This document shows positions 12,115-36,497 of a stretch of DNA of 64,000 bases, piece by piece; the stretch's first letter is position 1; the number at the start of each line of letters is the position of its first letter. The position numbers and the translations under genes were made by a program. The stretch spans positions 27,930-91,929 of the forward strand of contig JADFYH010000001.1 in the NCBI GenBank assembly GCA_015233135.1, in the 5' to 3' direction. Under the pieces are notes generated by a model. It had not been told where the DNA came from, did not search any database, and saw only the letters and a list, made by a program, of their open reading frames with translations. Source of the stretch: Deltaproteobacteria bacterium. GTDB lineage: Bacteria; UBA10199; JADFYH01.

Positions 12115-13314
12115 CTATTTCCTCATCGACTCAATCAAAATCCTCGCCACTTCAGGCCGTGAAAACTCAGGCGGTGGCAATTCCCCTTTGGAGAGTAGCT
12201 CTCGCACCTTGGTTCCCGAAAGCGCCACATGATTTTCTTTGTCATGAGGACAAGTCTTGGTCGAGGCCATGCCTTCGCATTTCTTGCAGTAGAAAGTATG
12301 GTCAAAAAACAGGGGAGTAATTGCCAATTCTTCTTTGTTAAAATTCTCAAAAATGAAATGCGCGTCAAAAGTGCCGTAGTAATTTCCCACACCGGCATGA
12401 TCGCGACCGACGATGAAATGCGAGCAGCCATAATTTTGACGGATTAAGGCATGGAAGATTGCCTCGCGAGGCCCCGCATAGCGCATCGCTGCGGGATTAA
12501 CGGCAAGTTGAGTACGGTTGGCAGGATAATAATTTTCAATGAGTTTTTCGTAGCATTTCATCCGCACCTCGGCCGGAATGTCGTCGCTCTTGGTGTCCCC
12601 CACGAGAGGATGGATGAGGAGTCCATCCACAATCTCCAAGGCACATTTGGTGAGATATTCGTGGGCGCGATGGATGGGATTACGCGTTTGAAAACCCACC
12701 ACGCGCTTCCATTTCTTTTCTGCAAATAAAGCGCGAAGTTGTGCGGGATCCAAACGGTATTGTAAAAAATGATCGTATTGAACTCGGTTGAGAACAGAGA
12801 CTTTCCCCGCCAAATACACTTCGCCTTGAGCATAAACCGCGGCAACACCCGGATGGGCGCCCTCTTCAGTTTTATAAACCTTTAAGGCCTCGTTTTTTTT
12901 ATTGGGTTCAAATTTTTCTTGGAGATGAAGAATAGCAAGAATTTCTCCCTCTGCCGAAAAAGCCCCCTCTCCCTTGAGGGGAGAGGGTTGGGGTGAGGGT
13001 GAAAACAACGCAATATCCTTCCCAATCTCATATTTTGCCGAATCTTCTTTTTTCACCGCCAGGGTAATAGGAATGGTCCACGCCAAACCATTCAAGAGCC
13101 GCATCTTTTCCACGACATTCTCATATTCCTTTTGGCCCATGAAGCCTTCCAGAGGAGAAAGCGCCCCACAGGCAATCATATCCAGATCACTCCTTTCGCG
13201 GGAATTGAGGACGATTTTGGGAAGTGCAGAAACTTGAGTGAGGGCTTTTTCTCTTTCGCTTCCAGTCAGGATACGAGAAATTAATTTTCCACCGTGTGGG
13301 GCTATCGCTGGCAT
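12115..13314 (-). CDS. sat: Sulfate adenylyltransferase (ATP sulfurylase)
   Basis: VGFQTRNPIHRAHE (QTRN and HxxH motifs) and GRDHAGVG motif; carries an in-frame repeat insertion (SPSPQPSPLKGEGAFSAEGE). Confidence 0.9.
   Translation of the reverse strand: MPAIAPHGGKLISRILTGSEREKALTQVSALPKIVLNSRERSDLDMIACGALSPLEGFMGQKEYENVVEKMRLLNGLAWTIPITLAVKKEDSAKYEIGKDIALFSPSPQPSPLKGEGAFSAEGEILAILHLQEKFEPNKKNEALKVYKTEEGAHPGVAAVYAQGEVYLAGKVSVLNRVQYDHFLQYRLDPAQLRALFAEKKWKRVVGFQTRNPIHRAHEYLTKCALEIVDGLLIHPLVGDTKSDDIPAEVRMKCYEKLIENYYPANRTQLAVNPAAMRYAGPREAIFHALIRQNYGCSHFIVGRDHAGVGNYYGTFDAHFIFENFNKEELAITPLFFDHTFYCKKCEGMASTKTCPHDKENHVALSGTKVRELLSKGELPPPEFSRPEVARILIESMRK
12962..13003. repeat. GC-rich palindromic repeat unit (family B) in-frame inside sat
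   Basis: ccccctctcccttgaggggagagggttggggtgagggtg; the same unit recurs at 22916, 31516, 35078, 36457 and as arms of the 16011, 18631 and 27084 elements. Confidence 0.7.
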
Positions 13315-13415
13315 AAAAACTCCATAAATCGAGGTTTGAAAATTGACGCGAAGAGTCTAAAGCATTTTTTACGAGGAGGAGTCAAGCGCTTGGAGGATTT
13401 CCAGTGTATACCTTC

Positions 13416-14534
13416 CTATCCCTTCAACTTCCTCCTCAAATTCGAAATCCCCAAAGCAGCCGTTCGTCCCAAGGCGGTATGGTAAAAATTCTTCATGGCA
13501 ACTTGCAGGCGGGACTTTCCGCCCACAAAATGGCGACCTTCCAGAGGGGTAAGTACCACATCAATTTGACGGATCCAGTTGGTAGAGAGTTTTTTGGCAC
13601 TTACTTTTTCGTAGAGGTAGGCATAGAGAGAAACAATTTCTTTGAGCTCCAAATTCCAACGCGCAGCAAGTTCGCTGTTCTCTTGAGGGGGAAAATAAGT
13701 AAGTAAGGGGAGCACACCCAAATCGGTAAGCACGTCTATGCCTTTTTGGGTAGAGGCATAGGGTTCCAGGCCGATTACCAAATGCGAGGTCACTGCACCA
13801 CCGGGAAACACCTTCACCGCATATTCCAGGGCCTCAAGGTATCTTTTTTGACGAATTCTTTTTTCTTTTTCGGGGTAGGTTTTGGCAAAGAGTTCGGGAT
13901 CAAACACGTCCAGGTCGTAATACACCATATCGGTACCCGCCGCATAAGTACGGTCTATCCAGGAATTTTTAGCCGGCGGCATAACGTCTGCTGAAATCAG
14001 CAAATTGAAGCGTTCACGAATTTTTTTAATAAGGGGTTCCAGCGTCTTCATTCCCCCATCTTCGGAAGTGGAAAAACCGGAAGAAATATGAATCATCTCG
14101 GCAGTGGCATGCTCCATCACCTTTTCCAGAGCTTCCAGGAAATCCTCATCCGTGTAAGGCGTTCCTTCCGGAACCGCCTTGCTGCCGCAATATTTACAAT
14201 CAAAACCGGATTTTGCAAAACGGCAAGGCCCCCGCGGAGCCGCTACCAGAAAGGCCCCGTGGGAGTGAAGGATGTCATGGATGAGATGCCCCGACTGGAC
14301 GCGCTCATCAAAGACGGGAGGACGCATCAATAATTTGACTTTGAGGGATTGATCTCGAAATTTCAGCTCAAACTCATTATTTGTTTCGACAACCTGATAA
14401 GAAGATTTTTCTTTTTGTGAAACCGTCACCCAGGTATTTTCAGGAAGGATGAGAATAATATCGTCATCCCAACCGGGCAAAGGTTGTATGCCTTGGGCAA
14501 AGAGATCAAGTTTGAGGAGGCCGATGTTGAGCAT
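13416..14534 (-). CDS. Conserved hypothetical protein with Cys-x9-Cys-x2-Cys motif (possible Fe-S / radical-SAM-like TIM barrel)
   Basis: 372 aa; PRGPCRFAKSGFDCKYCGS motif; lies between the MNT/HEPN pair and sat in the sulfur operon. Confidence 0.3.
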   Translation of the reverse strand: MLNIGLLKLDLFAQGIQPLPGWDDDIILILPENTWVTVSQKEKSSYQVVETNNEFELKFRDQSLKVKLLMRPPVFDERVQSGHLIHDILHSHGAFLVAAPRGPCRFAKSGFDCKYCGSKAVPEGTPYTDEDFLEALEKVMEHATAEMIHISSGFSTSEDGGMKTLEPLIKKIRERFNLLISADVMPPAKNSWIDRTYAAGTDMVYYDLDVFDPELFAKTYPEKEKRIRQKRYLEALEYAVKVFPGGAVTSHLVIGLEPYASTQKGIDVLTDLGVLPLLTYFPPQENSELAARWNLELKEIVSLYAYLYEKVSAKKLSTNWIRQIDVVLTPLEGRHFVGGKSRLQVAMKNFYHTALGRTAALGISNLRRKLKG

Positions 14535-14537
14535 GGG

Positions 14538-14930
14538 TTAGGGTTCTATTTTTTGAATCAGAATACTTAATGAATGGACAAATTTTTTCGCCGTCTCATA
14601 CACCTCATCCGCCACCATCACATTATAGGTGTGCGCTGTATTATTTCGATAAGAAAGATACTCAAACCATTGCTCTAATTCGGTTTCATCAATCCAACCC
14701 ACTTGAACGGAATCTCTAAACACTTGTTTAGGGCTAGGAGACAAGACTGCTTCCAACTCCAAGGCACGCTTTAAAATCTTCCAAGTCAATTCTAAACAAT
14801 ACTCAAAACGTTTGATCACTGAATCACGAACAAAAGAAGAGTAAGGTTGAGCTAAGGCTTCCTCTAAAGTGCATAAAGCTTGCTTCAACTGACTTAATCG
14901 AAGAGCGAATTGTTCTTCTTTTTCTTCCAT
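14538..14930 (-). CDS. HEPN-domain protein, HI0074 family (putative toxin of HEPN/MNT pair)
   Basis: YRNNTAHTYN (Rx4HxY HEPN motif); 37-nt overlap with the upstream nucleotidyltransferase gene. Confidence 0.75.
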   Translation of the reverse strand: MEEKEEQFALRLSQLKQALCTLEEALAQPYSSFVRDSVIKRFEYCLELTWKILKRALELEAVLSPSPKQVFRDSVQVGWIDETELEQWFEYLSYRNNTAHTYNVMVADEVYETAKKFVHSLSILIQKIEP

Positions 14931-15226
14931 ATCTGTACTTCCTTAAGAGCATAGGCTTTAAAATTCTCATCCACTTTTGAAAAATCGACCAAATCAATTT
15001 TTTGGGCGATGGGAAAGGCCTCTAATTGTTCACGCAAATTTGAAATTTCCAAATTGGACAAAATTTCCTCAGTAAAAAATCCAATATCATAATCGGAGAA
15101 TTTTTTTACCGAGTCGGCATGAGCCCGTGAACCAAACAAAAAAATATCGGCATCTTTCTCTTTAAAGAAATTGAGAATCTGCTTTTTGAGAAACTCTTTT
15201 ACTTCAGAAAAAGACTGCCAATTCAC
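14894..15226 (-). CDS. Minimal nucleotidyltransferase (MNT, HI0073 family; putative antitoxin)
   Basis: [22 protein letters not shown] (GS...DxD pol-beta NTase motif). Confidence 0.75.
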
Positions 15227-15501
15227 TTTCCACCCGCAATGGCAGGCACAATTGACAACTCATCGCCCGCTTTAAGAGGAGTAGCATCACTTTGCAGAAA
15301 GCGGATGTCTTCTTCATTCACATAAAAATTGACGAAGCGACGGAGACTTCCTTTTTCGTCGCAGAGACGATTATAAATTCCGGGATAGGCTTTCTCCAGG
15401 TTTTGGAGGGCTTCTTTGACGGTGCCTGCCTGTATTTGAACTTCACCCTGGTTTTGGGTGAGCTTTTGTAGGGGAGTGGGGATGCGTACTTTGACTGACA
15501 T
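15223..15501 (-). CDS. MoaD/ThiS-family sulfur-carrier protein with C-terminal GG-K
   Basis: 92 aa beta-grasp-like; ends ...VPAIAGGK; start chosen at MSVKVRI with AAGGAG RBS 7 nt upstream; adjacent to a JAMM protease. Confidence 0.65.
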
Positions 15502-15514
15502 GGTTTTCTCCTTC

Positions 15515-15988
15515 TTAAAGAGTGCGTAAACGAAATTTTTTCTCGCTATAATCCTTCTTCTCATCCTCCCAACTAAACAAGCTAGCCGCGACCGCCTTGC
15601 CTTCGCGGACGGAAACTACCACCCAATGTAAATTGGGATTATTAGGTTCGCCCCAAGGACCTGCCATCAATTTGTCTTCTTCAGAAAAATATACCTCATG
15701 ATCAGGGTGCGAATGGTAGATGACTTTAAACTCAAAGTCTTTGTCCGCAGCTTCTCTTTCGACAATGCTCACATCCTTAGGATCCATGTAGTAAGCATTT
15801 TTGCTGGTGCGCGAATACTTTTCAGGATCCTGGGCATGCAGTTCATCCTGAATATTTTTAATGGGAAAAAGCCCAATGGCATTGTGATGTTCTTTAGGGC
15901 CAATGAGAATCCCGCAGGCCTCACTGGGATAGGCCTTTTCGGTTTGAAGACAGATTTGTTTTAAAACGTATTCGGAAATAAAGGGCAT
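15515..15988 (-). CDS. JAMM/MPN+ metalloprotease (Mec+/HcyD-like)
   Basis: Canonical JAMM motif E...[14 protein letters not shown] (HxHx7Sx2D). Confidence 0.85.
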
Positions 15989-16010
15989 AGATATAGATAG
16001 CTTCTTTACT

Positions 16011-16108
16011 TCCCCCTCTTAAGCTAAGAGGGGGTTAGGGGGCGTTATGACCAATTGAATGCGATTGAACCATAACCCCTCCTACCTCCCCTTAGCTTAA
16101 GGGGAGGA
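16011..16108. repeat. Palindromic GC-rich miniature element (family B, full two-armed copy)
   Basis: ccccctcttaagctaagaggggg ttagggggcgttatgacc ... ggtcataacccctcc ... ccccttagcttaaggggagg; intergenic between the JAMM gene and the cysteine synthase gene. Confidence 0.7.
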
Positions 16109-16115
16109 AAGGTCA

Positions 16116-16997
16116 TTACAAATACCTCTCCCCTGAATCACAAAAAATCGTCACAATCACTCCTTCTTTTATTTGTTTTGCAATCTGATAGGCCCCCAGC
16201 AAATTGGCTCCTGCCGAGTGTCCCACCAGCATCCCTTCTTTTTTCGCCAGCGCTTCGCATAAGTCCCAAGCAGGTTCAGTGGCGATGGACAGTTTTTGGT
16301 CGTGCTCTGCTTCTTTGTATATTCCCGGCACAATCGAAGTAGGCATATGCTTCAAACCTTCCAAGCCATGGAGTGCATCTTCGGGTTCTACCGCAATCAC
16401 TTGAATCTTTGGATTGTAGGCCTTGAGCCGACGACCCGTTCCCATCAAGGTGCCACTGGTTCCTATCCCTGCCACAAAATGAGTGACACGACCTTGCGTT
16501 TGATTCCAGATTTCTAGCCCTGTCGTATCGTAATGCGCCTGAGGATTAAAGGGGTTGTTGTATTGATCGGGACAAAAATATTTATCCGGATTTTCTTTTT
16601 TTAATTTCTGCGCCAGGCGAATGGCCCCATCCGAGCCTTCCATCTCTGACGAAAAAGTCAGCTTGGCCCCGTAACTGAGGGCCACGGCTTTTCGCCGCGG
16701 GCTTACATTTCCAGGAACCACCAACTCCACCGGATAACCCAAGGCTGCACCAATCATCGCCAAGGCAATCCCGGTGTTTCCACTGGTGGGATCCATAATG
16801 ATTTTCCCTGGTCTGAGTTGGCCAGATTTTATTCCTTCCATCACCATACGCGCCGCAGGCCTGTCTTTGATGGAACCTCCGGGATTATAAAACTCCAGCT
16901 TCGCGTAAATTTCCACTTTGGGAAGTTCTTTTTCAAAGAATCGTACACGGTAGAGGGGGGTGTTGCCGATTAAGTCTAACATACCAACTTTGTTCAT
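16116..16997 (-). CDS. Cysteine synthase family PLP enzyme (CysK/CysM-like)
   Basis: GSIKDRPA PLP-lysine motif, SGNTGIALA glycine loop. Confidence 0.85.
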   Translation of the reverse strand: MNKVGMLDLIGNTPLYRVRFFEKELPKVEIYAKLEFYNPGGSIKDRPAARMVMEGIKSGQLRPGKIIMDPTSGNTGIALAMIGAALGYPVELVVPGNVSPRRKAVALSYGAKLTFSSEMEGSDGAIRLAQKLKKENPDKYFCPDQYNNPFNPQAHYDTTGLEIWNQTQGRVTHFVAGIGTSGTLMGTGRRLKAYNPKIQVIAVEPEDALHGLEGLKHMPTSIVPGIYKEAEHDQKLSIATEPAWDLCEALAKKEGMLVGHSAGANLLGAYQIAKQIKEGVIVTIFCDSGERYL

Positions 16998-17043
16998 AAT
17001 ATTTTAAACTTCGTTGCAGAAATTCTCTTTATGCAATGAAGCA

Positions 17044-17370: not shown

Positions 17371-18606
17371 TTATTTCTTCATCTGTCCCACCACTGCATC
17401 AAAATCGGCCAGCTTGGCATTAATCACGGTAGGGGCACCTACAAAATCGGCCACCGCTTCCTGGGTCTTCAAACCATTTCCAGTCACACACACCACTACC
17501 GATTCGTCTTTGGGAATTTTGCCTTGCTCAATCAATTTCTTGGCGGCCCCCAGGGTAACACCGCCCGCAGTCTCAGTAAAAATCCCAGTGGTTTCTGCTA
17601 GCAGTTTGATGGCTTCCACAATTTCGGGATCACTCACATCTTCGGCCCAGCCCCCCGTTTCTTTCATTGAACCCATGGCGTAAAACCCATCGGCAGGGTT
17701 ACCAATGGCCAGAGACTTCGCAATGGTGTTGGGTTTCACGGGTTTGAACAATTCCCAATCATTTTTGAGTGCGGTCGAAATGGGTGAACAACCCGTGGCC
17801 TGCCCCCCAAACACCTTACAGTTTGGCGCTTCAATCAAGCCCATCTTATGAAACTCTTTCATGGCCTTGTGGATTTTGGTGAGCAGAGAACCCGAGGCCA
17901 TCGGCACCACCACATTTTGGGGGGCCTTCCAACCCAATTGTTCCATGGTTTCGTAAAACAAACTCTTGGAACCTTCGGCATAAAAAGGACGGATATTAAT
18001 ATTCACAAAGGCCCATTTGTATTTCGCGGCAATCTCGCTGCACAGACGATTCACTTCATCGTAGGTGCCGCGGATACCGACCACATTTCCGCCAAACACC
18101 AGGGTTCCCAAAATCTTGCCAGCTTCCAGATCGTGGGGAATAAACACGTAGCTTTTAAGCCCTGCCCCGGCGGCATTGGCGGCGACCGAATTGGCGAGAT
18201 TCCCCGTGGAAGCGCAGGCAACGGTTTCAAATCCAAATTCCTTGGCCTTGGACAAAGCCACCGAAACGACGCGATCTTTGAAAGAAAGCGTAGGATAAGA
18301 AACCGCGTCATTTTTTATATAAAGTTCTTTCACACCCAATATCTTAGCCAGGCGATCGGCTTTTACGAGAGGTGTAAAACCGACATCACGACCCACCGTG
18401 GGCTCGCCATCAATCGGAAGCAGCTCGCGATAACGCCACATGTTTTTGGCGCGACTTTCAATTTTTTTGCGAGAGATATCTTTTTTGATTTCCTCGTAGT
18501 TGTAGTCCACTTCGAGCGGACCAAAACAGTATTCACACACATGCGTGGGAGTGACGGGATAAAGCTGGCCGCATTCGCGACATTTTAGGCCTTTGACGTA
18601 GGACAT
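17371..18606 (-). CDS. Threonine synthase-like PLP enzyme with N-terminal zinc ribbon
   Basis: CRECG...CEYC ribbon; SFKDR PLP-lysine motif; ThrC fold-type II; first gene after a SAM riboswitch. Confidence 0.8.
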   Translation of the reverse strand: MSYVKGLKCRECGQLYPVTPTHVCEYCFGPLEVDYNYEEIKKDISRKKIESRAKNMWRYRELLPIDGEPTVGRDVGFTPLVKADRLAKILGVKELYIKNDAVSYPTLSFKDRVVSVALSKAKEFGFETVACASTGNLANSVAANAAGAGLKSYVFIPHDLEAGKILGTLVFGGNVVGIRGTYDEVNRLCSEIAAKYKWAFVNINIRPFYAEGSKSLFYETMEQLGWKAPQNVVVPMASGSLLTKIHKAMKEFHKMGLIEAPNCKVFGGQATGCSPISTALKNDWELFKPVKPNTIAKSLAIGNPADGFYAMGSMKETGGWAEDVSDPEIVEAIKLLAETTGIFTETAGGVTLGAAKKLIEQGKIPKDESVVVCVTGNGLKTQEAVADFVGAPTVINAKLADFDAVVGQMKK

Positions 18607-18630
18607 TATTAAACACCTTCAGTTCATACT

Positions 18631-18732
18631 CCCCCTCTTAGGCTAAGAGGGGGTCAGGGGGCGTTATGGCAATTGGATTCAAAGTGACCATAAACCCTCC
18701 TAACCCCCTTCTTAGCTTCAAGAGAAGGGAAA
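18631..18732. repeat. Palindromic GC-rich miniature element (family B, full copy) in the 5' leader of the thrC-like gene
   Basis: ccccctcttaggctaagagggggtcagggggcgttatggc ... gaccataaaccctcctaaccccc ttcttagcttcaagagaaggg. Confidence 0.7.
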
Positions 18733-18754: not shown

Positions 18755-18932
18755 ACGAAAAAAAACCCCTTCTTGGGTGATCTGTTCCAGAATCATTCAA
18801 GAAGAGGTTTTATACCGCTCTCTCCTTATCTACCCCGATTCTTCGGGATGGAATTAGCACCCGTCGAATTTTCAAATTCCGGGTTGCTGCAGGATCATCG
18901 GGCCATTTCCCTCACCTGCTCTGGATAAGACG
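18755..18932 (-). ncRNA. SAM-I (S-box) riboswitch with intrinsic terminator
   Basis: Minus-strand RNA: UCUUAUCCAGAGCAGGUGAGGGAAAUGGCCCGAUGAUCCUGCAGCAACC...GGUGCUAAUUCC...GAUAAGGAGA (P1 UCUUAUC/GAUAAGA), matching the S-box consensus. Followed by CCUCUUCUUG...CAAGAAGGGG hairpin plus U8 at 18753-18805. Confidence 0.8.
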
Positions 18933-21911: not shown

Positions 21912-23339
21912 TTACTCCCCCACCAAATCGTATTCCGCCGCTTCTACAATTTTCACCTCGCAAAAGTCCCCCACTCTCATTCCTTGAGAAGCTTTCACGT
22001 AGGTGATGCCATCAATTTCAGGGGCTTGAATACCAAGACGGGCCTCGAGGTAGCCTGGTTTTTCTTCGCTGATGCACTCCAGCAGGGCAGGCAAGGCTTT
22101 ACCAACCAGTCTTTTATTTTTTTTGAGCGAGATCCCTTGCTGCAAACTCATCAAGCGGTGAAATCGTTCATCTTTTTCTTCTGGGGCGATTTGACCCGGC
22201 AAGGCTGCGGCCAGAGTATCTTCTTCTGGAGAATATCTAAAAACACCCACATGATGAAATTCGTACTCTTTCACAAACTGATACAGCTCGTCAAATTCCG
22301 CCTTGGTCTCCCCGGGATAACCCACGATAAATGTGGTACGGATGGCAATCTCCGGTATAGCCTTTTTTAATTTTCCTAAAATTTGACGTACATATCGGGC
22401 AGGAGAACCTCGCTTCATGGAACGCATGACGCGGGCATTGATATGCTGCAAAGGCATGTCGACATATTTCACCAGATGCCCCGAATTGCGTAGGACAGCA
22501 ACCAAGCCGTCCGTAAACTCCAACGGGTACATGTAAAGCGGTCGAATCCAGAAATCGCCTTTGATCTGATCAAGCTCTTTCAACAGCCCAGTGAGATTTG
22601 TTCCGTCCCGAAGATCTTTTCCATATTCGTTTAAGTCCTGGGCAATGAGATTAAATTCCCTCACCCCTTTACCAAGCCCCTGCTGTACTTCGCGAACGAT
22701 GGAGGCAATGCGCCTGCTTTTCAAATCCCCGCGAATGTGGGGAATAATGCAAAAAGAACAGCGGTGAGAACAACCTTCGGAAATTTTCACATAACTAAAG
22801 TGCCCCGGCGTAGAAAGCACCCGTGGCAAATCCGGATCAGGCAAGATTTGGCGGCGGGTGGTGAAGGAGCTGAGATCGGAAGGGGTTTTGGATTCGGGGT
22901 GTTGGTTGATGAACAGGCGATCCCCCTCTCCCTGATGACCCTCCCCCTCCCTCAGTATCCTCCCAATCCGATCAAACTCCCCCAAACCCACAAAGGCGTC
23001 TATTTCCGGCAGCTCTGCCTCCAACTGCCTTGCATAACGCTGAGTCAGACAACCTGTCGCCACAAGCACCTTGCAGCGCGCCGTTTTCTTAAGCTCGGCC
23101 ATCTCTAAAATTTTATTAATCGATTCGGTTTTGGAATCTTCCACAAAACCGCAGGTATTCACAATCACCACATCGGCTTCTTGGGGATTGGCCGAAAAGG
23201 AAAAGCCCTCTTGCTTCAGAAAGCCCAGCATCATTTCGGCATCCACCAAATTCTTGGGGCAACCAAGGGAGATAAGGGAGATGATTTTTGAATTTTTTTC
23301 AGTCATCTTGATCTTTCGGATTCTGAAATTGGTGGACAT
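21912..23339 (-). CDS. rimO: Ribosomal protein S12 methylthiotransferase RimO (radical SAM MTTase)
   Basis: N-terminal SLGCPKNLVDAE, radical SAM CSHRCSFC, C-terminal TRAM; in-frame repeat insertion around EGEGHQGEGDRLF. Confidence 0.8.
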   Translation of the reverse strand: MSTNFRIRKIKMTEKNSKIISLISLGCPKNLVDAEMMLGFLKQEGFSFSANPQEADVVIVNTCGFVEDSKTESINKILEMAELKKTARCKVLVATGCLTQRYARQLEAELPEIDAFVGLGEFDRIGRILREGEGHQGEGDRLFINQHPESKTPSDLSSFTTRRQILPDPDLPRVLSTPGHFSYVKISEGCSHRCSFCIIPHIRGDLKSRRIASIVREVQQGLGKGVREFNLIAQDLNEYGKDLRDGTNLTGLLKELDQIKGDFWIRPLYMYPLEFTDGLVAVLRNSGHLVKYVDMPLQHINARVMRSMKRGSPARYVRQILGKLKKAIPEIAIRTTFIVGYPGETKAEFDELYQFVKEYEFHHVGVFRYSPEEDTLAAALPGQIAPEEKDERFHRLMSLQQGISLKKNKRLVGKALPALLECISEEKPGYLEARLGIQAPEIDGITYVKASQGMRVGDFCEVKIVEAAEYDLVGE

Positions 23340-27013: not shown

Positions 27014-27250
27014 TTCCCTCTCCCTTGAGGCATAGGTATCTACACATCTCAGCAAACTATTGGTTTTATTGACTCTGCTGTTCCTCCCCTTAAGCTAAGG
27101 GGAGGTTAGGAGGGGTTATGGAAGATCTTGCTGAACTCAAAAATACTGTAATTTGCACGGTTTTCCATAACTCCCCCAACCCCCTCTTAGCTTAAGAGGG
27201 GGCAATACCAAAAGATGTGTAGATACCTATGCCCTTGAGGGGAGGGGAAA
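27014..27250. repeat. About 240-bp near-perfect palindromic miniature element (family B core with long terminal inverted repeats)
   Basis: ccctctcccttgaggcataggtatctacacatct (27014-27050) mirrored by agatgtgtagatacctatgcccttgaggggagggg (27213-27250); core two-hairpin unit at 27084-27203. Confidence 0.75.
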
Positions 27251-31115: not shown

Positions 31116-31916
31116 TCACTTCAACAAAGCCACCCAGCCCGTAGCAATCTGATGCGCCCAGCGACGCAGTCCGGGAAGGTATTTAAGCATGTCCGTCAAA
31201 ATTTGCCTGGGATTTAAACCGGCCGTGATAATTTCCTGTTCCCCAATTTCTACCCAGTTTCTCAGCATGCTATCGGTCATCTCCGGGTGAAATTGCAAAC
31301 CATACACCCGATCCATATAGCGAAACGCCTGGTTGATAAAAAGCGCAGAACCCGCCAGGCGCATGGCCCCGCTGGGAATATCAAACGTTTCCCCATGCCA
31401 TTGAAATAAAACGGAAGGAGAGGGAAGCATCCCAAAAATAGGATCTTTATTAGAAGCCGGCGCCAGAGTCAGCGGATACCAGCCGATTTCCCTCAGAATG
31501 TTTCCCTTCAATATTCCCCTCCCCCCCTGAGGGGGAGGGTGTCCGCCAGAGGCGGACGGGAGAGGGGCAGGAGGACCAGGGAGAGGGGTAGAAATAGAAT
31601 ACACCTTCGCCCCCAAAGCCTTCGCAATCAGCTGGGCCCCCAAACACACCCCTAAAAGGGGAAGCCGTAACTGAATGGCCTGGAGAATCATCTTCAACTC
31701 ATCGGCAATAAATTGAAGCTTAGCTCCATCGTTCGCACTCATAGAACCACCCATCAGGACAATGCCCGAATAATCGCAAAGCTCTTCATCGAGAGGAACT
31801 GGATCGCCCAAAAAAAGTTTTTTAGTGATGACCTGCTGGCCCGGTTTGTGGAACAAGGGCTCAAAGGCGCCAATGCCTTCGTGGGCTTCGTGTTGGAGGA
31901 CGAGTATTTTTTTCAT
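31116..31916 (-). CDS. Class I glutamine amidotransferase-like protein
   Basis: GVCLGAQL catalytic Cys region and HPE motif; in-frame Pro/Gly-rich insertion (PLPGPPAPLPSASGGHPPPQGGRG) from repeat DNA at 31516-31590; start set to MKKILVLQ. Confidence 0.65.
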   Translation of the reverse strand: MKKILVLQHEAHEGIGAFEPLFHKPGQQVITKKLFLGDPVPLDEELCDYSGIVLMGGSMSANDGAKLQFIADELKMILQAIQLRLPLLGVCLGAQLIAKALGAKVYSISTPLPGPPAPLPSASGGHPPPQGGRGILKGNILREIGWYPLTLAPASNKDPIFGMLPSPSVLFQWHGETFDIPSGAMRLAGSALFINQAFRYMDRVYGLQFHPEMTDSMLRNWVEIGEQEIITAGLNPRQILTDMLKYLPGLRRWAHQIATGWVALLK

Positions 31917-32236
31917 GGGTGTTCCATCCAAAAGCGAAGGGAGTCCGGACAAAGTTCAAAACCATTAGGCCAGGCCAAGGCACCCGATTCAACAAAACAT
32001 TTCTCAAAAATCCCTCCTCTGAGGACCTCTGCAGCCAGACCCTTTGGATGTAAAAAAAGGTGTTGAAGCGAAACAGCAGCTTTACATCCATCTTGAAATA
32101 ATAAGCTCACTTGAAAATTTTCCAAGCTTACCTTCAAAATCTTTTGAACACTATTTCCTAAAGAGACCGGGGTGATTCTTACTTTTCCAGCCCTTGTATT
32201 CTTTTTGACGTCTTGTTTTCTTGCGCGAGTTGCCAT
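31913..32236 (-). CDS. Hypothetical small protein (DUF2442-like?)
   Basis: 107-aa ORF, 4-nt overlap with the GATase start. Confidence 0.3.
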   Translation of the reverse strand: MATRARKQDVKKNTRAGKVRITPVSLGNSVQKILKVSLENFQVSLLFQDGCKAAVSLQHLFLHPKGLAAEVLRGGIFEKCFVESGALAWPNGFELCPDSLRFWMEHP

Positions 32237-32278
32237 GCTCTCCTCAATTCAAGAAATGCAGCGATGATAGGCATAAAA

Positions 32279-32665
32279 TTATTTTCTTCGCTTGGGCTTC
32301 AACTTCTTCAACCTCACCGAGGGCATTCTTTTCAGTTTTTGATTTTTGGGGTCAATATCAATCCCCACCGATTCTAAAGCAGTCACCCCCAAAATGGGTT
32401 CAGTGCCAGGATCTCCAAAGATAATGGTACCTCCAACAATTTCTCCCATAAACTCTATATCACCCGTTGTAATGTCCATTTTTATTTCACTTCCATCCCC
32501 CAGTTCATAAGTGCGCTGAGATTTAGGCTTGAGTCCTATAGCTTCTAAATGATCTCGCGGGACCAGAGAATCGATCGCTCCACTATCCACAAGGAAAAGC
32601 CCTTCCCAAGATTTTTTTGGATTTGCTGGATTGCGAATGGTAACTGTGACATGTGTGGCGCCCAT
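32279..32665 (-). CDS. Retropepsin-like (clan AA) aspartyl protease
   Basis: FLVDSGAIDSLV, a D-S-G-A catalytic motif in a 128-aa protein with a basic C-terminal tail. Confidence 0.55.
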   Translation of the reverse strand: MGATHVTVTIRNPANPKKSWEGLFLVDSGAIDSLVPRDHLEAIGLKPKSQRTYELGDGSEIKMDITTGDIEFMGEIVGGTIIFGDPGTEPILGVTALESVGIDIDPKNQKLKRMPSVRLKKLKPKRRK

Positions 32666-32691
32666 AAAATACTCCCTTATCCATGAGGATA

Positions 32692-33006
32692 CTAATATTC
32701 TTCCCGTTCCAAAAGCTCAATCTCAGGAAAAATTTCTTTCAGCAAAGCTTCCCAGTATTGAGGGCGCTGGGTTTCCTCGATTTTAATTAAAACTTGAAAT
32801 TCTTTATAAAGGACTCGATGGTTTTCATCGTCGATAAACCAATTGAGTAATATACAAATTTTTTCTCCTGTATTGAGATCGTAAGAATAATACTCCCCAT
32901 AATGATCGCTAATTCTTCCAACAGGACTTACTGGAACGATCTTGTTTAATTCAAGATACAATACCTCAACATCACCTTTTTTTAACCCATACAAATCGTA
33001 GATCAT
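32692..33006 (-). CDS. Hypothetical protein
   Basis: 104-aa ORF, co-directional with its neighbours. Confidence 0.3.
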   Translation of the reverse strand: MIYDLYGLKKGDVEVLYLELNKIVPVSPVGRISDHYGEYYSYDLNTGEKICILLNWFIDDENHRVLYKEFQVLIKIEETQRPQYWEALLKEIFPEIELLEREEY

Positions 33007-33014
33007 ACTTCCAC

Positions 33015-34160
33015 CTATTTCTTAAGAAAATTGATATAGTACCCTCTCTGCGAAAGAGTTGCTTCAGAATCATAAATCACAAAAGTAACTTCTCTCTGAA
33101 AATAATTTTTTAATTCTAGAGTCAATTGATGTAGCCCTAGCTTTTCTGAATAATTGGGCTCTAAAGGCCATGTTCGTCTTCTGCTTGCAAGAGGCGCTCT
33201 CACTTCCTTCGCCCTCTCAAAAATCTCCTTCCCCGAAATAGAAAAATCAAAATCGCTTCGTTTCACTGCATCAAAAGCATGACCCAGTCTAAAATTCTTC
33301 CCTGTCACCGCACTCCCAAACAGGTGAGCTTTGGCTTCCGGAAACCCTGCTTCTGCAAGGGCTTGATGGATCTTATTCCCCACCACCTCAAATTCCGCAA
33401 CATCTTTAAATCCATGGGGTAACTTTGAAAGTGCCTTAAATTTGGAAATATCCCCTATCGCCCCAATCTCACCCAACTCCCCAATCTTCCCCACTTTTGC
33501 AACAGGAGCAATCAAAGTCGCAACTTCAAAAGCAATCGAGCCTTTCCCTTCATCACTATTCCATTTTTCCTGATACTGCTGTTTAACCCCTTCCCAAGTC
33601 TGCAAGGGATGCAAGGCCATGTTGCCCAAGCCTTCCAGAGGCTTCATGCCTGGCATCATTCGGAGATTTTCTTTGAAATTTTCCTTTGCCCCTTCCCAGG
33701 TTTTGTTCTGTTCCGCGTGATAACCAAAATGTTCCCATTCTTTTTTGAAAGAATCGTAAATATTTTCTAAAGGAGAAAGTGAGACCACCCCCTTAATCAT
33801 TTCTCCAGGGCCATCGATAAAAAATCCTTTTAAAAAATGGGTGGCTCGTTTTCTTAACTCGGAAGTATTTGCATCCCAAGCGCTTTTTCGTTTTTCGAGA
33901 GCAGAAAAACCCTTTTGCATGTCCTGACTAAAAAAAGGAGAGCCTTGTTGCCTTTCTTTTATTTCCTGAGCCTGAGAATCATCAATTTCAGTCTCTACTT
34001 TTGCAGAGAAGGTCGAGGGCTTGATTTCTTTTAAATTGGATCGGAGGAGTGCTTGTGTCATAGCTTGTGGAAAAAGCAGGAGCTGTGCCAAAAAATTAAA
34101 ACTTGAAATTGAAGCACTTACAAAAATGAAAAAAATGAGCGGCATCCGATTTTCAGACAC
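33015..34160 (-). CDS. Hypothetical secreted protein with C-terminal nucleotidyltransferase-like motif
   Basis: Signal peptide; HLFGSAVTGKNF...SDFDFSISG resembles the pol-beta NTase GS...DxD motif. Confidence 0.3.
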   Translation of the reverse strand: MSENRMPLIFFIFVSASISSFNFLAQLLLFPQAMTQALLRSNLKEIKPSTFSAKVETEIDDSQAQEIKERQQGSPFFSQDMQKGFSALEKRKSAWDANTSELRKRATHFLKGFFIDGPGEMIKGVVSLSPLENIYDSFKKEWEHFGYHAEQNKTWEGAKENFKENLRMMPGMKPLEGLGNMALHPLQTWEGVKQQYQEKWNSDEGKGSIAFEVATLIAPVAKVGKIGELGEIGAIGDISKFKALSKLPHGFKDVAEFEVVGNKIHQALAEAGFPEAKAHLFGSAVTGKNFRLGHAFDAVKRSDFDFSISGKEIFERAKEVRAPLASRRRTWPLEPNYSEKLGLHQLTLELKNYFQREVTFVIYDSEATLSQRGYYINFLKK

Positions 34161-34164
34161 GAGT

Positions 34165-35646
34165 ATGAAAACAAAACAAAAGATTTACACCCTCACCCTA
34201 CCCTCTTCCCTCTCCCAACTCCGCTCTACCCTCCTCCCTTGGTACCAGCAGCACAAGCGCAGTCTACCTTGGCGCCAGACGAAAGACCCATACAAAATCT
34301 GGCTTTCCGAAATCATGTTACAGCAAACGCAAGTCACCACCGTGATTGATTACTATCAGCGTTTTCTAAAAAAATTCCCTACCTTGGAGAGTTTGGCTAA
34401 GGCTAAAGAACAAGACGTGCTCACCCTGTGGTCAGGGCTGGGCTACTACAGCCGAGCCAAAAATCTGCAAAAAGCCGCCCAAAAAATTGTTCAAAACTAT
34501 CATGGAATTTTTCCAAACGATCCGGCTGAAATGCTCAAACTCCCGGGCATAGGCCTCTACACTCGAGGTGCCATTGCCAGTATTGCCTTTGATTTGCCGG
34601 TGGCTTTGGTGGATGGAAATGTGATTCGCGTGTATTCCAGATTACTCGCACTTGCGGGATCGCCTTCGGACGCAAAATTTGTGAAGGAAATTTGGAGAGT
34701 GGCGGAGGGGGTGATTGAGAAGTTAGACGTGAGACGTGAGACGAAAGAAGTAAAAAGTAAAACTGAAAAAAACCCAGGTCTTTCGTCTCACCTCTCACGT
34801 CTCACGTCTTCCCCTCCCCATTCCCCTGGCGACTTCAACCAGGCCCTCATGGAACTGGGCGCCACGATTTGCAGCCCAAAAAATCCCAGCTGTCTGATTT
34901 GCCCACTTCAAAAATGTTGTGAAGGAAAATTACTGGGCCCTGAAAATTTCCCGGAGAAGAAAAAGAGGACGAAAACGAAGGAAATGACGCGCGTAGTGTG
35001 GGTGATGCTGGAGCATGAGAAAGGGTGCAGATGCATTTTACCTCACCCTGACCCTTTCCTCAAGAAGGAAGCAGAATCCCCTCTCCCTCGAGGGGAGAGG
35101 GCCGGGGTGAGGGTGATAAATCAACTGGACCCCCACTGCAAAATCCAACTGATTCAAGACCCCAATACCCGTTGGCACAAGGGCTTGTGGCAGTTGCCTG
35201 GGGAATGGGAGGAGGGAAGAGGAAAAAGGAAAGAGGGAAGAGGGGAGAAGGGAGAAGGGAGACGTGAAACGAAAGACGTAAAAAGTGAAATGGGAAAAAG
35301 CTCCCATCTTCCGTCTCACCTCTTACGTCTCACACCTCACGTCTTACCCCTCCCCTCCTTCACCCACCACATAACCCATCATAAAATAAAGGTTTTGCCG
35401 TATTTGGTAAGAAAGTTAGAAGTAAGTCGTGAAACGAAAGACGTAAGACGGAAGACGAAAGAAGTGAGACGTGAAACGGGAAAAACATTTCCTCTTCCGT
35501 CTCACATCTCACATCTCACATCTCACGCATCTCCCCTCACGTCCCTCCCCCTCCCCCAGGCCCTAAAACTCCCCCTCCCCGCCCCGGACAAGAAAATTTT
35601 AAATTTCTTGCGAGAATTTATGGATAAAGGCAGGGCATCTAAATGA
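34165..35646 (+). CDS. mutY: Adenine DNA glycosylase MutY with multiple in-frame repeat insertions
   Basis: LPWRQTKDPYKIWLSEIMLQQTQV; HhH-GPD region; 4Fe-4S cluster CSPKNPSCLICPLQKCC; C-terminal NUDIX-like region split by three inserted segments (VRRETKEVKS..., GRRETKDVKS..., SRETKDVRRKTKEVRRETGK...). Confidence 0.8.
   Translation: MKTKQKIYTLTLPSSLSQLRSTLLPWYQQHKRSLPWRQTKDPYKIWLSEIMLQQTQVTTVIDYYQRFLKKFPTLESLAKAKEQDVLTLWSGLGYYSRAKNLQKAAQKIVQNYHGIFPNDPAEMLKLPGIGLYTRGAIASIAFDLPVALVDGNVIRVYSRLLALAGSPSDAKFVKEIWRVAEGVIEKLDVRRETKEVKSKTEKNPGLSSHLSRLTSSPPHSPGDFNQALMELGATICSPKNPSCLICPLQKCCEGKLLGPENFPEKKKRTKTKEMTRVVWVMLEHEKGCRCILPHPDPFLKKEAESPLPRGERAGVRVINQLDPHCKIQLIQDPNTRWHKGLWQLPGEWEEGRGKRKEGRGEKGEGRRETKDVKSEMGKSSHLPSHLLRLTPHVLPLPSFTHHITHHKIKVLPYLVRKLEVSRETKDVRRKTKEVRRETGKTFPLPSHISHLTSHASPLTSLPLPQALKLPLPAPDKKILNFLREFMDKGRASK
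34725..34812. repeat. ACGTGAGACG-type palindromic element (family C) in-frame in mutY
   Basis: agacgtgagacgtgagacgaaagaag ... tctttcgtctcacctctcacgtctcacgtct. Confidence 0.7.
35260..35349. repeat. Family C palindromic element, second copy in mutY
   Basis: gagacgtgaaacgaaagacgtaaaaagtgaaatgggaaaaagctcccatcttccgtctcacctcttacgtctcac. Confidence 0.7.
35407..35530. repeat. Family C palindromic element, third copy in mutY (with ctcacat x3)
   Basis: aagtcgtgaaacgaaagacgtaagacggaagacgaaagaagtgagacgtgaaacgg ... ccgtctcacatctcacatctcacatctcacgc. Confidence 0.7.
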
Positions 35647-36065
35647 CCTTAAAACTGACAAGTCTTACAAAAGCAATTGAATCGCTGGCAAAATCTGTTC
35701 AAGTTATTTCCTCTCCAAAACAGATGGAAGCGCTGACTCCTGAAGCACGAGAGACCATCCAATCGGGTGTCATTCAAAACTTTGAAGTCGCTTATGAACA
35801 AGCCTGGAAGATGATGAAACGCTGGATTGAAAACAATGTCGGGAGCACTGTGGTGGATGGCGTCAGTCGCAGAGAACTTTTTCGTTTAGCGGCTGAATCC
35901 CAATTGATTCAGGATGTCGATTTGTGGATGAGTTTTCATCAGGCAAGAAATGAAACTTCACACACTTATGACGGTGAGATTGTCGAAGAAGTGTTGGAAA
36001 TAGCTTCTCGCTTTTTGCTGGAAGTCAAAAATCTTTATTCCTATCTGGAAAAACACAATGATTGA
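35643..36065 (+). CDS. HEPN-domain protein, HI0074 family (second pair)
   Basis: QARNETSHTYD Rx4HxY motif; 4-nt overlap with the mutY stop, 8-nt overlap with the downstream MNT gene. Confidence 0.75.
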   Translation: MTLKLTSLTKAIESLAKSVQVISSPKQMEALTPEARETIQSGVIQNFEVAYEQAWKMMKRWIENNVGSTVVDGVSRRELFRLAAESQLIQDVDLWMSFHQARNETSHTYDGEIVEEVLEIASRFLLEVKNLYSYLEKHND

Positions 36066-36375
36066 TTTGCCCCAAACTACCCTTAAAACCATCCAAAATA
36101 TTCTCAAAACCCGGCTTCCCCAAGCGGAAGTGCGCGCCTTTGGTTCGCGGGTGATGGGAACAGCTAAACCCTACTCCGATCTCGATTTAGTCATTCTAGA
36201 CTCCCAAAAATTAGGCCTGAACACCCTGGCTACACTAAAAGAGGCCTTTCAAGAATCCAATATACCCATTCGTGTGGATGTTCTGGATTGGAACGCCATT
36301 AGCCCCGAATTTCGGGAAGTGATTGAGAAAAAGTACGAAATCCTTCAAAAATCAGAAAATCACAAAAAATTTTAA
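36058..36375 (+). CDS. Minimal nucleotidyltransferase (MNT, HI0073 family), second pair
   Basis: AFGSRVMGTAKPYSDLDLVILD. Confidence 0.75.
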   Translation: MIDLPQTTLKTIQNILKTRLPQAEVRAFGSRVMGTAKPYSDLDLVILDSQKLGLNTLATLKEAFQESNIPIRVDVLDWNAISPEFREVIEKKYEILQKSENHKKF

Positions 36376-36456
36376 AAAACTTAGCAACATTTCTGAAGAA
36401 GTGACGAAAATGGAGAAGTTGACAATTTAGCCTTGTTGGATAGGGCTATTTCAAAA

Positions 36457-36497
36457 TCCCCTCTCCTTACGAAGGAGAGGGTTAGGGTGAGGTCTTA
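36457..36497. repeat. Family B short unit, intergenic
   Basis: cccctctccttacgaaggagagggttagggtgaggtc. Confidence 0.6.

Follow-up and report, generated by a model that had tools for sequence, protein, structure and literature searches.

The window, a 64-kb stretch of deltaproteobacterial DNA, carries GC-rich repeats of the intrastrand-triplex/hairpin type, and copies of one family of these, family A, have probably landed in genes and persisted there as passengers. Family A is the BoxC / PIT / TMECO intrastrand-triplex motif, which is long known and spread across phyla. The repeats are real and non-random, yet they represent neither a single family nor a novel one.

Repeat families in the window

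The sequence CCCCTCTCCC, allowing at most one mismatch, is matched 23 times in the window compared to 3.5 ± 1.9 times in shuffles, with none of 100 shuffles scoring as high. The published triplex pattern occurs in full twice against 0.00 expected, and a third family A copy (36458) lies two substitutions from it. The original prediction placed a single repeat unit at eight or more sites, and seven of the eight listed (12964, 16010, 18629, 27081, 31514, 35078 and 36458) are genuine hairpin/triplex-type units, as also supported by single-strand folding z-scores of −2.1 to −6.4. The remaining site, at 22916 in rimO, was rejected as a unit, as it shares only a 10-mer and two G-blocks and forms no hairpin (MFE 0, z +1.4). 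Nor do the sites belong to one family, since they split into families A and B with differing sequences. The triplex-type units measure 37-45 nt singly and ~100 nt as doublets and have homopyrimidine/homopurine stems.

Family A units consist of CCCTCTCCC-N5-GGGAGAGGG-N3-GGGTGAGGG, as found at 12964 in sat, at 35078 in mutY and, in a degenerate form with the two substitutions, at 36458 (36457..36496, plus strand, intergenic between ORFs 36058-36375 and 36520-40803). In addition, a composite in a glutamine amidotransferase (GATase) gene belongs to this family with the CCCTCTCCC stem. In a pattern search, the units in sat (12965) and mutY (35079) matched exactly the published consensus, 5'-CCCTCNCCC N3-6 GGGNGAGGG N3 GGGNGAGGG (PMC4666352). 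The novelty implied by the original prediction is therefore lost, as what it describes is the BoxC / PIT / TMECO motif, present in E. coli and many phyla and on record since the 1990s (PMC4666352, PMC5100583; Bachellier et al., 1990s; Hoyne et al. 2000; Holder et al. 2015, PMC4666352; Kaplan et al. 2016, PMC5100583). Triplex formation has been observed in vitro only, with oligonucleotides from E. coli; in vivo, none was detected. BLAST searches with the sat unit gave matches in 5403 of 5426 E. coli genomes, at a median of 16 places per genome, and the exact core of 30 specified bases was found at at least 120 loci in species genomes of many phyla, including Proteobacteria, Dehalococcoidia, Verrucomicrobia, Planctomycetes, Bacillota, Armatimonadetes and others. 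That phyla share an exact 34-nt core is not what would be expected of a repeat that is purely selfish and drifting.

Family B has CCCCCTCTT / CCTCCCCTT stems and invariably forms inverted doublets. As predicted, its two-armed palindromes at 16011, 18631 and 27084 are intergenic, and none is assigned to a strand. The first (16010..16110; folding z −6.4, stops in six of six frames) joins a CCCCCTCTT unit to a CCTCCCCTT unit between the JAB gene (15515-15988) and a PALP gene (16116-16997), while the second (18629..18732), with a degenerate second unit, lies between a SAM riboswitch aptamer (18823-18931, minus strand) and the start of a PALP gene (17371-18606). The third (27081..27207) is located within a MITE-like element of ~200 nt (27032-27231), which has perfect 19-nt terminal inverted repeats and is flanked by a 9-nt direct repeat, CCCTTGAGG (27023-27031 and 27232-27240). 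This element interrupts a family-A-like hairpin, TCCCTCTCCC-TTGA-GGGGAGGGG (27015..27247, likewise unstranded). The third segment of family B co-varies with the stem, AAGAGGGGG being paired with GGGGGAGTT or GGGGGCGTT, and AAGGGGAGG with GGAGGGGTT. With its core present in 96 metagenome contigs of GC 0.35 to 0.69, family B is a sister triplex-type family of family A, of the same architecture and likewise widespread.

In-frame copies in sat, the GATase gene and mutY

The four genes predicted to host units (sat, rimO, GATase and mutY) all have intact ORFs, and catalytic residues are conserved in sat, GATase and mutY, in agreement with the prediction that the hosts are not frameshifted pseudogenes. 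Likewise, the inserted length is a multiple of three at each genic copy, namely +45 (sat), +93 (GATase) and ~+117 nt (mutY doublet).

In sat (12115-13314, minus strand), a net insertion of 45 nt or 15 codons (12954..12998, plus strand; family A core 12964-13001) encodes SPQPSPLKGEGAFSA. The segment is missing from all ten aligned orthologs as a 15-aa gap, including those 88% and 85% identical, and a 45-nt gap opens when its DNA is aligned with the empty sites L121 and L122. The protein comprises 399 aa, compared to 384-385 aa for almost every ortholog listed (a few reach 390, 406 and 476 aa), the motifs QTRNPIHRAHE and GRDHAG are invariant columns of the ortholog alignment, and the insert is positioned at a turn of 2-4 residues in two solved homologs.

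The class-I glutamine amidotransferase gene (31116-31916, minus strand) carries the composite family-A-like segment (31491..31598, plus strand), a net gain of 93 nt (31 aa) built from a CCCTCCCCC/GGGGGAGGG hairpin, a second hairpin, GTCCGCC/GGCGGAC, and two GGGAGAGGGG blocks. The site spans 5-6 residues in the 67%-identical ortholog P0361 (234 aa), in six further homologs and in homologs from the PDB, and the catalytic Cys91, His210 and Glu212 are invariant in the alignment.

The largest load, one doublet, three long palindromes and one half-unit, is found in mutY (34021/34165-35646, plus strand), annotated at NCBI as 'hypothetical protein'. Its insertion of ~117 nt or 39 aa (35023..35139, plus strand; folding z −3.8) is a gap in all eight aligned orthologs and forms an inverted doublet of a degenerate unit in minus orientation (35040-35072) and an intact family A unit (35078-35116) with the loop TCGA and loop 2 CCG, encoding ...SPLPRGERAGVRV... 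Three long palindromes of a further family, C, also lie in frame on the plus strand. The first (34704..34826; z −7.9), with a purine-rich arm, a loop and a pyrimidine-rich arm, follows the HhH-GPD domain in a loop where orthologs carry other palindromic inserts, and the others are situated in the C-terminal NUDIX-like domain (35207..35360) and the C-terminal domain (35409..35560). The palindromes at 34704-34826, 35207-35360 and 35409-35560 and the degenerate partner at 35040-35072 had been overlooked. The protein thus has 493 aa versus ~355-390 aa in orthologs, with four gap blocks in the alignment; Glu49, Asp150 and the four Fe-S cysteines are invariant, and Pfam no longer detects the C-terminal NUDIX_4 domain. 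In the mutY model, the low-confidence segments 179-269, 287-320, 351-390 and 418-456 coincide with the inserts and the flanking conserved strands are predicted better, yet low confidence at inserts is partly automatic, since they are gaps in the model alignments. Both structure models were built from 9-11 sequences each and are poor (mean pLDDT 45.7 and 56.7).

Insertion was also rejected for the rimO segment, as the protein equals its closest ortholog, P0242, in length. The linker segment EGEGHQGEGDR (22916..22960, minus strand) is not an inserted unit and at most a decayed remnant. In the orthologs P0262, P0274 and P0304, the same linker does contain intact inserts of this repeat. The expected in-frame insertions adding Pro/Gly/Glu-rich loops were thus confirmed by ortholog alignments for sat, GATase and mutY, where Pro/Ser/Gly/Glu-rich segments stand in place of a turn or linker, but not for rimO.

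Frame compatibility is linked to genic occupancy. Family A units are stop-free in 3-5 of the six frames (4-5 for the two intact copies), whereas family B units are open in none and are never genic in the window, as stops in all six frames make read-through impossible. In exactly the frame used by the mutY unit, a TTGA loop, the usual form, would introduce a stop, which its TCGA loop avoids. Genes are not favoured as sites, since three of eight triplex-type insertion events are genic in a window with a coding share of 92%.

Similar insertions recur elsewhere. In a metagenomic relative (JGI 3300055273), both mutY and rimO contain inverted doublets that are independent and keep the reading frame. 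Among 510 homologs of the four genes, 8 include peptides encoded by the repeat, grouped around the rimO linker and the mutY loop. In other (alpha-/gamma-)proteobacteria, the same core is also found in frame within genes of the HsdM, DnaE2 and ABC-ATPase types.

Persistence and spread of the genic copies

Each unit pairs a pyrimidine stem with a complementary purine stem, and the latter is mirrored by a third segment rich in G/T. Such short, non-coding, structure-defined repeats would multiply inside genomes as single units or inverted doublets, and some family A copies have entered genes in this deltaproteobacterial lineage. They are probably tolerated and persist as passengers because the net length change is divisible by three, the unit is stop-free in most frames, the Pro/Ser/Gly/Glu/Arg-rich peptides (PSPQPSPxxGEG or SPLPxGERxGVR) are likely flexible, and surviving copies sit in turns or linkers between conserved secondary-structure elements, allowing the enzymes to stay working. 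Both the neutrality of the genic copies and their mode of copying are what we infer from sequence. A Pfam scan of ~33 ORFs of the 64-kb window revealed no mobilising enzyme and no transposases.

The only filled/empty junction reconstructed, that of sat (n = 1), has ambiguous boundaries and is compatible with two readings: insertion beside GAAAA with a 5-nt repeat (12956-12960 and 13001-13005), or the exchange of 9 nt at the middle of a small palindrome, ATTTTC-N4-GAAAAT, for a 54-nt segment. The latter would suit a possible, if tentative, scenario in which copies are gained and lost without a dedicated transposase, through errors made in replicating or repairing non-B DNA (template switching, gene conversion from another copy, slippage at hairpins/triplexes), genic copies being rare survivors. 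Consistent with this, alleles of the polymorphic E. coli locus gntP-fimH differ by replacement (81 nt versus 12 nt) and not by clean insertion, the mutY loop and rimO linker hold differing palindromic elements in different lineages, and Holder et al. reported an excess of small deletions and changes near the motifs with no mobile-element link (PMC4666352). However, such errors alone do not explain identical 34-nt cores at new, unrelated sites in distant phyla, and there is no direct evidence of a conversion tract from a donor copy.

It appears unlikely that the units are of REP/REPIN type and mobilised by a RAYT (IS200/IS605-like Y1 transposase) whose gene lies elsewhere in the genome, copies being excised and integrated as single-stranded hairpins beside a short target word. 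The units are indeed short imperfect palindromes, single or as inverted doublets folding into long hairpins, and neither terminal inverted repeats nor longer target duplications were seen at triplex-type units. Immediately 5' of the sat copy is a GAAAA word, and the copy terminates in GAAAA as well. The mutY insert has GAAAAA at one border and AAAAT at the opposite one, and in copies of the window, the relative, E. coli and Dehalococcoidia the third segment is succeeded by a (T)GAAA(A/T) tail. Yet this junction evidence is ambiguous (n = 1-2), just two flanking positions are conserved among 131 copies from many taxa, a conserved GTAG-type head is missing, and no Y1 transposase is among the ORFs scanned in the window. 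We know of no RAYT linked to BoxC in E. coli.

It is more doubtful still that the genic copies are functional, as regulatory DNA/RNA structures (pausing, recombination/mutation hot spots), as a mutY contingency locus modulating mutation rate, or as selected protein modules. The exceptional load of mutY, its independent targeting in relatives and the association of the motifs with local genomic instability in E. coli could point this way, and it could be speculated that G-rich tracts are oxidation targets, as MutY repairs A:8-oxoG mispairs. However, the host functions are unrelated (sulfate activation, amidotransferase, DNA repair), the inserts occupy non-conserved turns and linkers and are missing from almost all orthologs, previous studies detected neither promoter nor terminator nor regulatory activity in the E. 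coli elements, and losing an in-frame palindrome would restore a shorter protein instead of inactivating it. Finally, ancestral low-complexity linkers, decaying pseudogenes or an assembly artefact are highly improbable: the rimO segment is merely a linker of ordinary length, and mutY has its NCBI name and undetected NUDIX_4 domain, but for sat, GATase and mutY these readings are largely refuted by segments wholly missing in the closest orthologs (sat 88% and 85%, GATase 67%), open frames and conserved catalytic residues, and the units are shorter than the assembler k-mer and recur in independent contigs of the relative.

Comparison with known repeat systems

Like the ORF-compatible MITEs (intragenic ERIC, Coxiella QMITE1, Anabaena MITEs; PMC10969869), the units are small non-autonomous repeats able to form in-frame fusions. 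Those MITEs have terminal inverted repeats and target duplications, seen here only at the separate 200-nt element (27032-27231) and not at triplex-type units. With REP/REPIN elements and their RAYTs, the units share short imperfect palindromes, high copy number, single or inverted-doublet arrangement (long hairpins) and a mainly intergenic location, but they lack a GTAG head, no RAYT was seen in the window, and they have a strict purine/pyrimidine strand asymmetry and a third mirror segment, missing in REPs, as well as in-frame genic copies.

Rickettsia palindromic elements (RPEs) are ~100-150 bp long, not of the GC-rich triplex type and, to our knowledge, restricted to Rickettsia. They too are palindromic repeats in frame in unrelated housekeeping genes with intact hosts, insert at sites compatible with the protein fold and encode a recurring peptide (Ogata et al. 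2000, summarised in PMC10969869). The units here differ in being 37-45 nt long and cross-phylum, with homopyrimidine/homopurine stems, and in a genic share below coding density. The predicted RPE-like behaviour holds, within a known repeat class. Its supposed rarity outside Rickettsia does not, as in-frame intragenic small repeats are not confined to this genus: intragenic ERIC, QMITE1 and others are listed in a review (PMC10969869), and the core is in frame in other proteobacteria.

The closest likeness in sequence is to BoxC/PIT/TMECO, with a 9-nt C-rich stem, a loop, GGGAGAGGG, a 3-nt loop (TTR or CCG) and GGGTGAGGG; loop 2 is TTG or CCG here, corresponding to E. coli types A and B. Both occur as single units and as inverted pairs uniting the two loop types, the mutY copy pairing A-like and B-type loop units in inverted orientation as in E. 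coli, whose copies show direct BLAST similarity to the units here, and both have a very broad taxonomic range and no associated transposase. The host here, by contrast, is an uncultured deltaproteobacterium with 47% GC, and the composite GATase copy has an extra hairpin in loop 2. Moreover, all E. coli copies are intergenic (PMC4666352, PMC5100583), whereas three of five family A events here are genic, in frame and presumably translated, and such in-frame copies, as seen in three intact housekeeping genes, have not been described for E. coli.

Repeat units, their families and the class they belong to

The palindromic repeats of the window were originally predicted to form a single family of at least eight units, yet reading of the eight sites listed together with a repeat finder divides them into two sequence families, and with the longer palindromes in mutY two to three families are present instead of one. 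With up to one mismatch allowed, the window has 23 copies of CCCCTCTCCC as opposed to 3.5 +/- 1.9 in dinucleotide-preserving shuffles, and the strong copies are all confined to 12.9-36.5 kb. Family A units have the form CCCCTCTCCC-TTGA/TCGA-GGGGAGAGGG-TT/CC-GGGGTGAGGGTG and are found at 12964 and 35078, with a degenerate copy at 36458 and a composite relative at 31514-31590. Family B units read TCCCCCTCTT-AAGC-TAAGAGGGGG-TTA-GGGGGCGTTATG or, as a variant, TCCTCCCCTT-AAGC-TAAGGGGAGG-TTA-GGAGGGGTTATG, and invariably occur as two inverted units spanning ~100-130 nt end to end (16010, 18629 and 27081). Their architecture is that of family A: the third segment is a mirror image of the purine stem and changes along with it. 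The family B core is present in 96 metagenome contigs with a GC content from 0.35 to 0.69. The units and doublets fold as single strands far better than shuffles do (z -2.1 to -6.4), including the doublets at 16010, 18629, 27081 and 35040 (z -3.8 to -6.4). The exception is the site in rimO (22916-22960, minus strand), which has only a 10-mer in common with the units and no hairpin (MFE 0, z +1.4), leaving seven of the eight predicted sites as real. At gathering thresholds, no Rfam family covers the units, the sole match in the window being a SAM riboswitch. Likewise, no CRISPR arrays and no T-runs after the hairpins were found in the window, and the triplex-type units display no terminal inverted repeats apart from their own hairpin.

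To our knowledge, catalogues of BoxC, PIT and triplex motifs date back to the 1990s, and neither a function nor a mode of spread has been established for these repeats. The triplex motif TMECO was defined by Holder et al. 2015 as 5'-CCCTCNCCC N3-6 GGGNGAGGG N3 GGGNGAGGG and is the element formerly named BoxC and PIT (PMC4666352). The window contains two exact matches to this pattern (12965-12998 and 35079-35112) versus 0.00 expected by chance, while the copy at 36459 matches with two substitutions. The second loop is TTG in the sat copy, TTA in the 36458 copy and CCG in the mutY copy, corresponding to types A and B of E. coli BoxC. The mutY doublet is an inverted pair of a degenerate TCA-type (A-like) unit and a CCG (B) unit, and inverted pairs in E. 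coli likewise combine both types. Using blastn, the sat unit (12950-13015) finds matches in 5403 of 5426 complete E. coli genomes at a median of 16 places per genome, with 1869 records having their best place at 95-99% identity. No annotated feature lies under the E. coli matches listed, and the core of one copy read directly is identical to that of the window unit. In addition, a scan with the exact pattern using one genome per species identified at least 120 loci, and hosts of the core among the matches listed include Variovorax, Methylobacterium, Enterobacteriaceae, Dehalococcoidia, Verrucomicrobia, Planctomycetes, Bacillota, Armatimonadetes, myxobacteria and others. Across these taxa, the flanks of the core show just two conserved positions besides a frequent (T)GAAA(A/T) tail.

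Given the TMECO pattern match, the similarity to E. coli copies, the spread across phyla and the architecture of family B, the repeats belong to a known and very widespread class and are neither a lineage-specific novelty nor a new class of element. As a rarity, the unit does not compare with Rickettsia palindromic elements. Formation of a triplex has been demonstrated by CD and NMR for E. coli oligonucleotides only (PMC4666352). For the window units, folding covers the hairpin part, while the class II purine-motif triplex is a prediction compatible with the mirror-symmetric third segment and with its co-variation with the stem in family B. In Dehalococcoidia MAGs (loci L004, L026, L076, L077, L084, L093, L107 and L112), the core forms part of a longer repeat that is specific to this lineage and conserved in its flanks (cagggtcttttaattct ... 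tgaaatc), and in Methylobacterium it belongs to another, different longer repeat. The core therefore appears to be a shared module of otherwise unrelated repeats.

Several other elements surround the repeats. One is a MITE-like element of ~200 nt (27032-27231) whose terminal inverted repeats of 19 nt (CATAGGTATCTACACATCT / AGATGTGTAGATACCTATG) are perfect; it shows a direct repeat of 9 nt (CCCTTGAGG) and carries a family B doublet inside. It sits in the loop of a family-A-like hairpin (27015-27247) and splits it; taking the element out restores TCCCTCTCCC-TTGA-GGGGAGGGG. The family B doublet at 18629 separates the aptamer of a SAM-I riboswitch (18823-18931, minus strand, 80.6 bits) from the start codon of a PALP-family gene (17371-18606), occupying the expected place of the riboswitch expression platform. 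The window stems from a 162,140-bp contig of an NCBI MAG labelled "Deltaproteobacteria bacterium" (locus tags HQM15_, proteins MBF0491182.1 and MBF0491207.1), and its 10-40 kb part encodes a sulfur-assimilation cluster and housekeeping genes. Two HepT-like/nucleotidyltransferase-substrate-binding proteins, each beside a small ORF, are encoded at 14538-14930, within the sulfur cluster, and at 35643-36065, directly after mutY; in MNT-HepT toxin-antitoxin pairs, HepT is the toxin. Four to five tandem copies of a 12-nt repeat (CAGTATTTCCCC-like) are found at 21621-21687 near the N-terminus of an alpha/beta-hydrolase-like ORF (20749-21810). Just before the end of a 1427-aa fn3/LamG ORF (36520-40803), GC content falls abruptly from ~47-55% to ~30-35%, and the low-GC stretch at 40000-64000 looks like a surface-polysaccharide island, as it encodes glycosyltransferases, sugar epimerases/dehydratases, a heptosyltransferase and a C-methyltransferase. 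No triplex-type units were found in this stretch.

Copies within housekeeping genes

The original prediction placed single units in frame within sat, rimO, a class-I glutamine amidotransferase (GATase) gene and mutY. All four reading frames are indeed open, and functional residues are conserved in sat, GATase and mutY. Comparison with orthologs identifies the segments in these three as insertions, with net lengths that are multiples of three (45 nt in sat, 93 nt in GATase and ~39 aa for the mutY doublet), while the segment in rimO does not change the length of the protein.

The protein encoded by sat (12115-13314, minus strand) is 399 aa long versus 384-385 aa in nearly all of the 120 orthologs listed, and its functional motifs are conserved. 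All ten aligned orthologs lack SPQPSPLKGEGAFSA, including those 88% and 85% identical, and at the DNA level the two closest lack the 45 nt corresponding to 12954-12998. Two solved ATP sulfurylases have a turn of 2-4 residues between two aligned blocks at this position. An AlphaFold model of the protein was too poor for judging surface exposure (11 sequences, mean pLDDT 45.7), and alignment to the solved homologs was used in its place. In the GATase (31116-31916, minus strand), 36 residues stand in place of 5-6 in a 67%-identical ortholog, in six further homologs and in homologs of solved structure, a net gain of 31 aa. The insert lies between the helix following the catalytic Cys and the conserved (K)EIGW strand, and the Cys/His/Glu triad is conserved.

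MutY (34021/34165-35646, plus strand) carries a heavy load. The protein comprises 493 aa (541 from the first TTG) versus ~355-390 aa in orthologs and shows four gap blocks in alignment. One of these is the family A doublet at 35023-35139, while the other three are family C palindromes of 125-155 nt with a purine-rich and a pyrimidine-rich arm (34704-34826, 35207-35360 and 35409-35560; core GACGTGAGACG / CGTCTCACGTC). These were not part of the original prediction and are all in frame; within the window they are restricted to mutY, which also has a half-unit at 34186-34216. At the first family C site, a peptide of similar appearance (REVRRDFKL...) is seen in three orthologs (P0124, P0126 and P0129). 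MutY retains both catalytic residues, Glu and Asp, and all four Fe-S cysteines. A structural model displays confident conserved blocks parted by segments of low confidence at the positions of the four inserts and so lends weak support to their placement in loops, as the alignment is shallow and the inserts are themselves gaps in it. In NCBI, MutY (34021-35646, 493 aa) is named 'hypothetical protein HQM15_00310', and the C-terminal NUDIX_4 domain present in nearly all orthologs listed is not detected by Pfam; both are probably due to the family A inserts and the three longer palindromes. The ~2 kb between GATase and mutY (31953-34020) has a GC content of 0.41, a strong negative GC skew and three ORFs, one with weak aspartyl-protease matches and one of 381 aa without a Pfam match. 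This stretch may be an insertion, as GATase and mutY are adjacent in a related contig (L123, 9243-9947 and 10001-11215).

The rimO segment EGEGHQGEGDR aligns without length change to a 76%-identical ortholog and was rejected as an insertion. Yet, three other orthologs (P0262, P0274 and P0304) carry repeat-encoded inserts in exactly this linker, and the segment could possibly be a decayed remnant of a repeat.

Frame compatibility and recurrence in other genomes

Whether a family is found within genes follows its stop content. Intact family A units have no stop in four to five of the six frames and are found in genes, while in family B units, TAA and TAG words within and next to the loop close every one of the six frames, and these units are intergenic only. 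The mutY copy is read in the single forward frame closed by the common TTGA loop, its own loop being TCGA. The two frames used yield the recurring peptides PSPQPSPxxGEG and SPLPxGERxGVR, both of which are also found in a relative (JGI metagenome 3300055273). Three of the eight triplex-type events are genic in a region that is 92% coding, a pattern expected if landing in a gene is usually lethal and the survivors are frame-compatible and in tolerant loops. Stop content by frame provides a simple and testable rule for which repeat families are able to enter genes, and in-frame inserts account for odd Pro/Ser/Gly/Glu-rich loops during annotation.

In the same relative, represented by two contigs, GATase and mutY lie side by side as opposed to ~2 kb apart, and in-frame inverted doublets are found in mutY (L123, 10572-10654) and rimO (L124, 10377-10460) at sites unlike those of the window. 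In total, 8 of 510 homologs of sat, GATase, mutY and rimO contain repeat-encoded peptides. ORFs spanning the motif at the at least 120 genome loci were checked at the lower-GC loci, as genomes above ~63% GC are full of spurious long open frames. Beyond this lineage, three Pfam-confirmed genes contain the exact core in frame; they encode an HsdM methylase (L066, gammaproteobacterial MAG), a DnaE2-like polymerase (L090, alphaproteobacterial MAG) and, in the same MAG as the latter, an ABC ATPase that is interrupted by several units in tandem (L105). Though uncommon, in-frame occupancy is therefore not unique to the window organism. The ABC-transporter ATPase (MFD01689.bin.1.1, CAWFPF010000001.1, 1328001-1336000) is a more extreme case than any window copy, as a ~110-aa insert of tandem units (SPSPLGEGHPASAPSPLREGH... 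ending SPLGERVGVRG) splits its ABC_tran domain.

Mode of spread and comparison with known repeats

Reconstructing insertion junctions is hard in fast-evolving intergenic DNA, but feasible for genic copies, as coding DNA offers alignable empty sites in orthologs. At the empty sat site, both close relatives have the small palindrome ATTTTC-TCCA/TCCT-GAAAAT. The filled site allows two readings, a 45-nt insertion flanked by GAAAA or 54 nt in place of 9 nt; the latter arises because the codon following the insert shares none of its three bases with the orthologs. A target-site duplication of 5 nt (GAAAA) was considered and is weakened both by this changed codon and by the (T)GAAA tail being part of the element in many taxa; the junction holds a repeat of 5 nt at most with ambiguous boundaries. 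A pan-genome search in E. coli for a clean pair of filled and empty sites found gntP-fimH alleles of 81 nt versus 12 nt. As these differ by replacement, they neither confirm nor exclude target duplication. Both sets of junction data fit an IS200/RAYT-like single-strand route beside a short word, and they fit template switching or gene conversion at non-B DNA as well. No transposase or RAYT (Y1) was found among the ~33 window ORFs scanned against Pfam, the window covering 64 kb of the 162-kb contig. A classic MITE with fixed-length duplication does not fit, given the short, ambiguous repeat in sat and the replacement in E. coli; terminal inverted repeats with a fixed-length target duplication, the marks of such transposase-dependent elements, are seen only in the element at 27032-27231 and not in the triplex-type units.

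It could be speculated, although we consider it rather unlikely, that BoxC-type motifs are actively copied and colonise coding DNA in several phyla, recurrently at the same permissive sites, acting as a cross-phylum RPE-like generator of protein loops. Sites occupied recurrently are the inter-domain linker of rimO and the loop after the HhH-GPD domain of mutY. Under active copying, the sat junction would be an insertion beside GAAAA in the middle of a small palindrome, and genic pairs of filled and empty sites such as sat would be the first usable junctions for the spread of a 30-year-old orphan repeat.

In E. coli, copies are always intergenic in both published surveys (PMC4666352, PMC5100583), a location that is descriptive and not a structural requirement, whereas the sat, GATase and mutY copies lie inside intact ORFs. 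A literature search of open-access papers found no published description of intragenic BoxC/TMECO copies. What is new here is the in-frame occupancy of intact housekeeping genes by the BoxC class, the heavy load of mutY, and a rule that ties the presence of copies in genes to frame compatibility. REP and REPIN sequences are short imperfect palindromes, often in inverted doublets with a long hairpin, and the window doublets are likewise arranged. A REP or REPIN system would further be expected to include a matching RAYT gene for a Y1 transposase, typically with the repeats on either side. Rickettsia palindromic elements (RPEs) are about 100-150 bp long with Rickettsia as their host range, while the window units span 37-45 nt in a deltaproteobacterial MAG and have a core common to E. 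coli BoxC and many phyla. The window element is thus not related to RPEs by size or host range, and it belongs to the known BoxC class. What is retained of the RPE-like interpretation is the behaviour: as RPEs insert in frame into intact protein-coding genes at fold-compatible sites, so do the repeats in sat, GATase and mutY, though not in rimO, as seen in the ortholog alignments.
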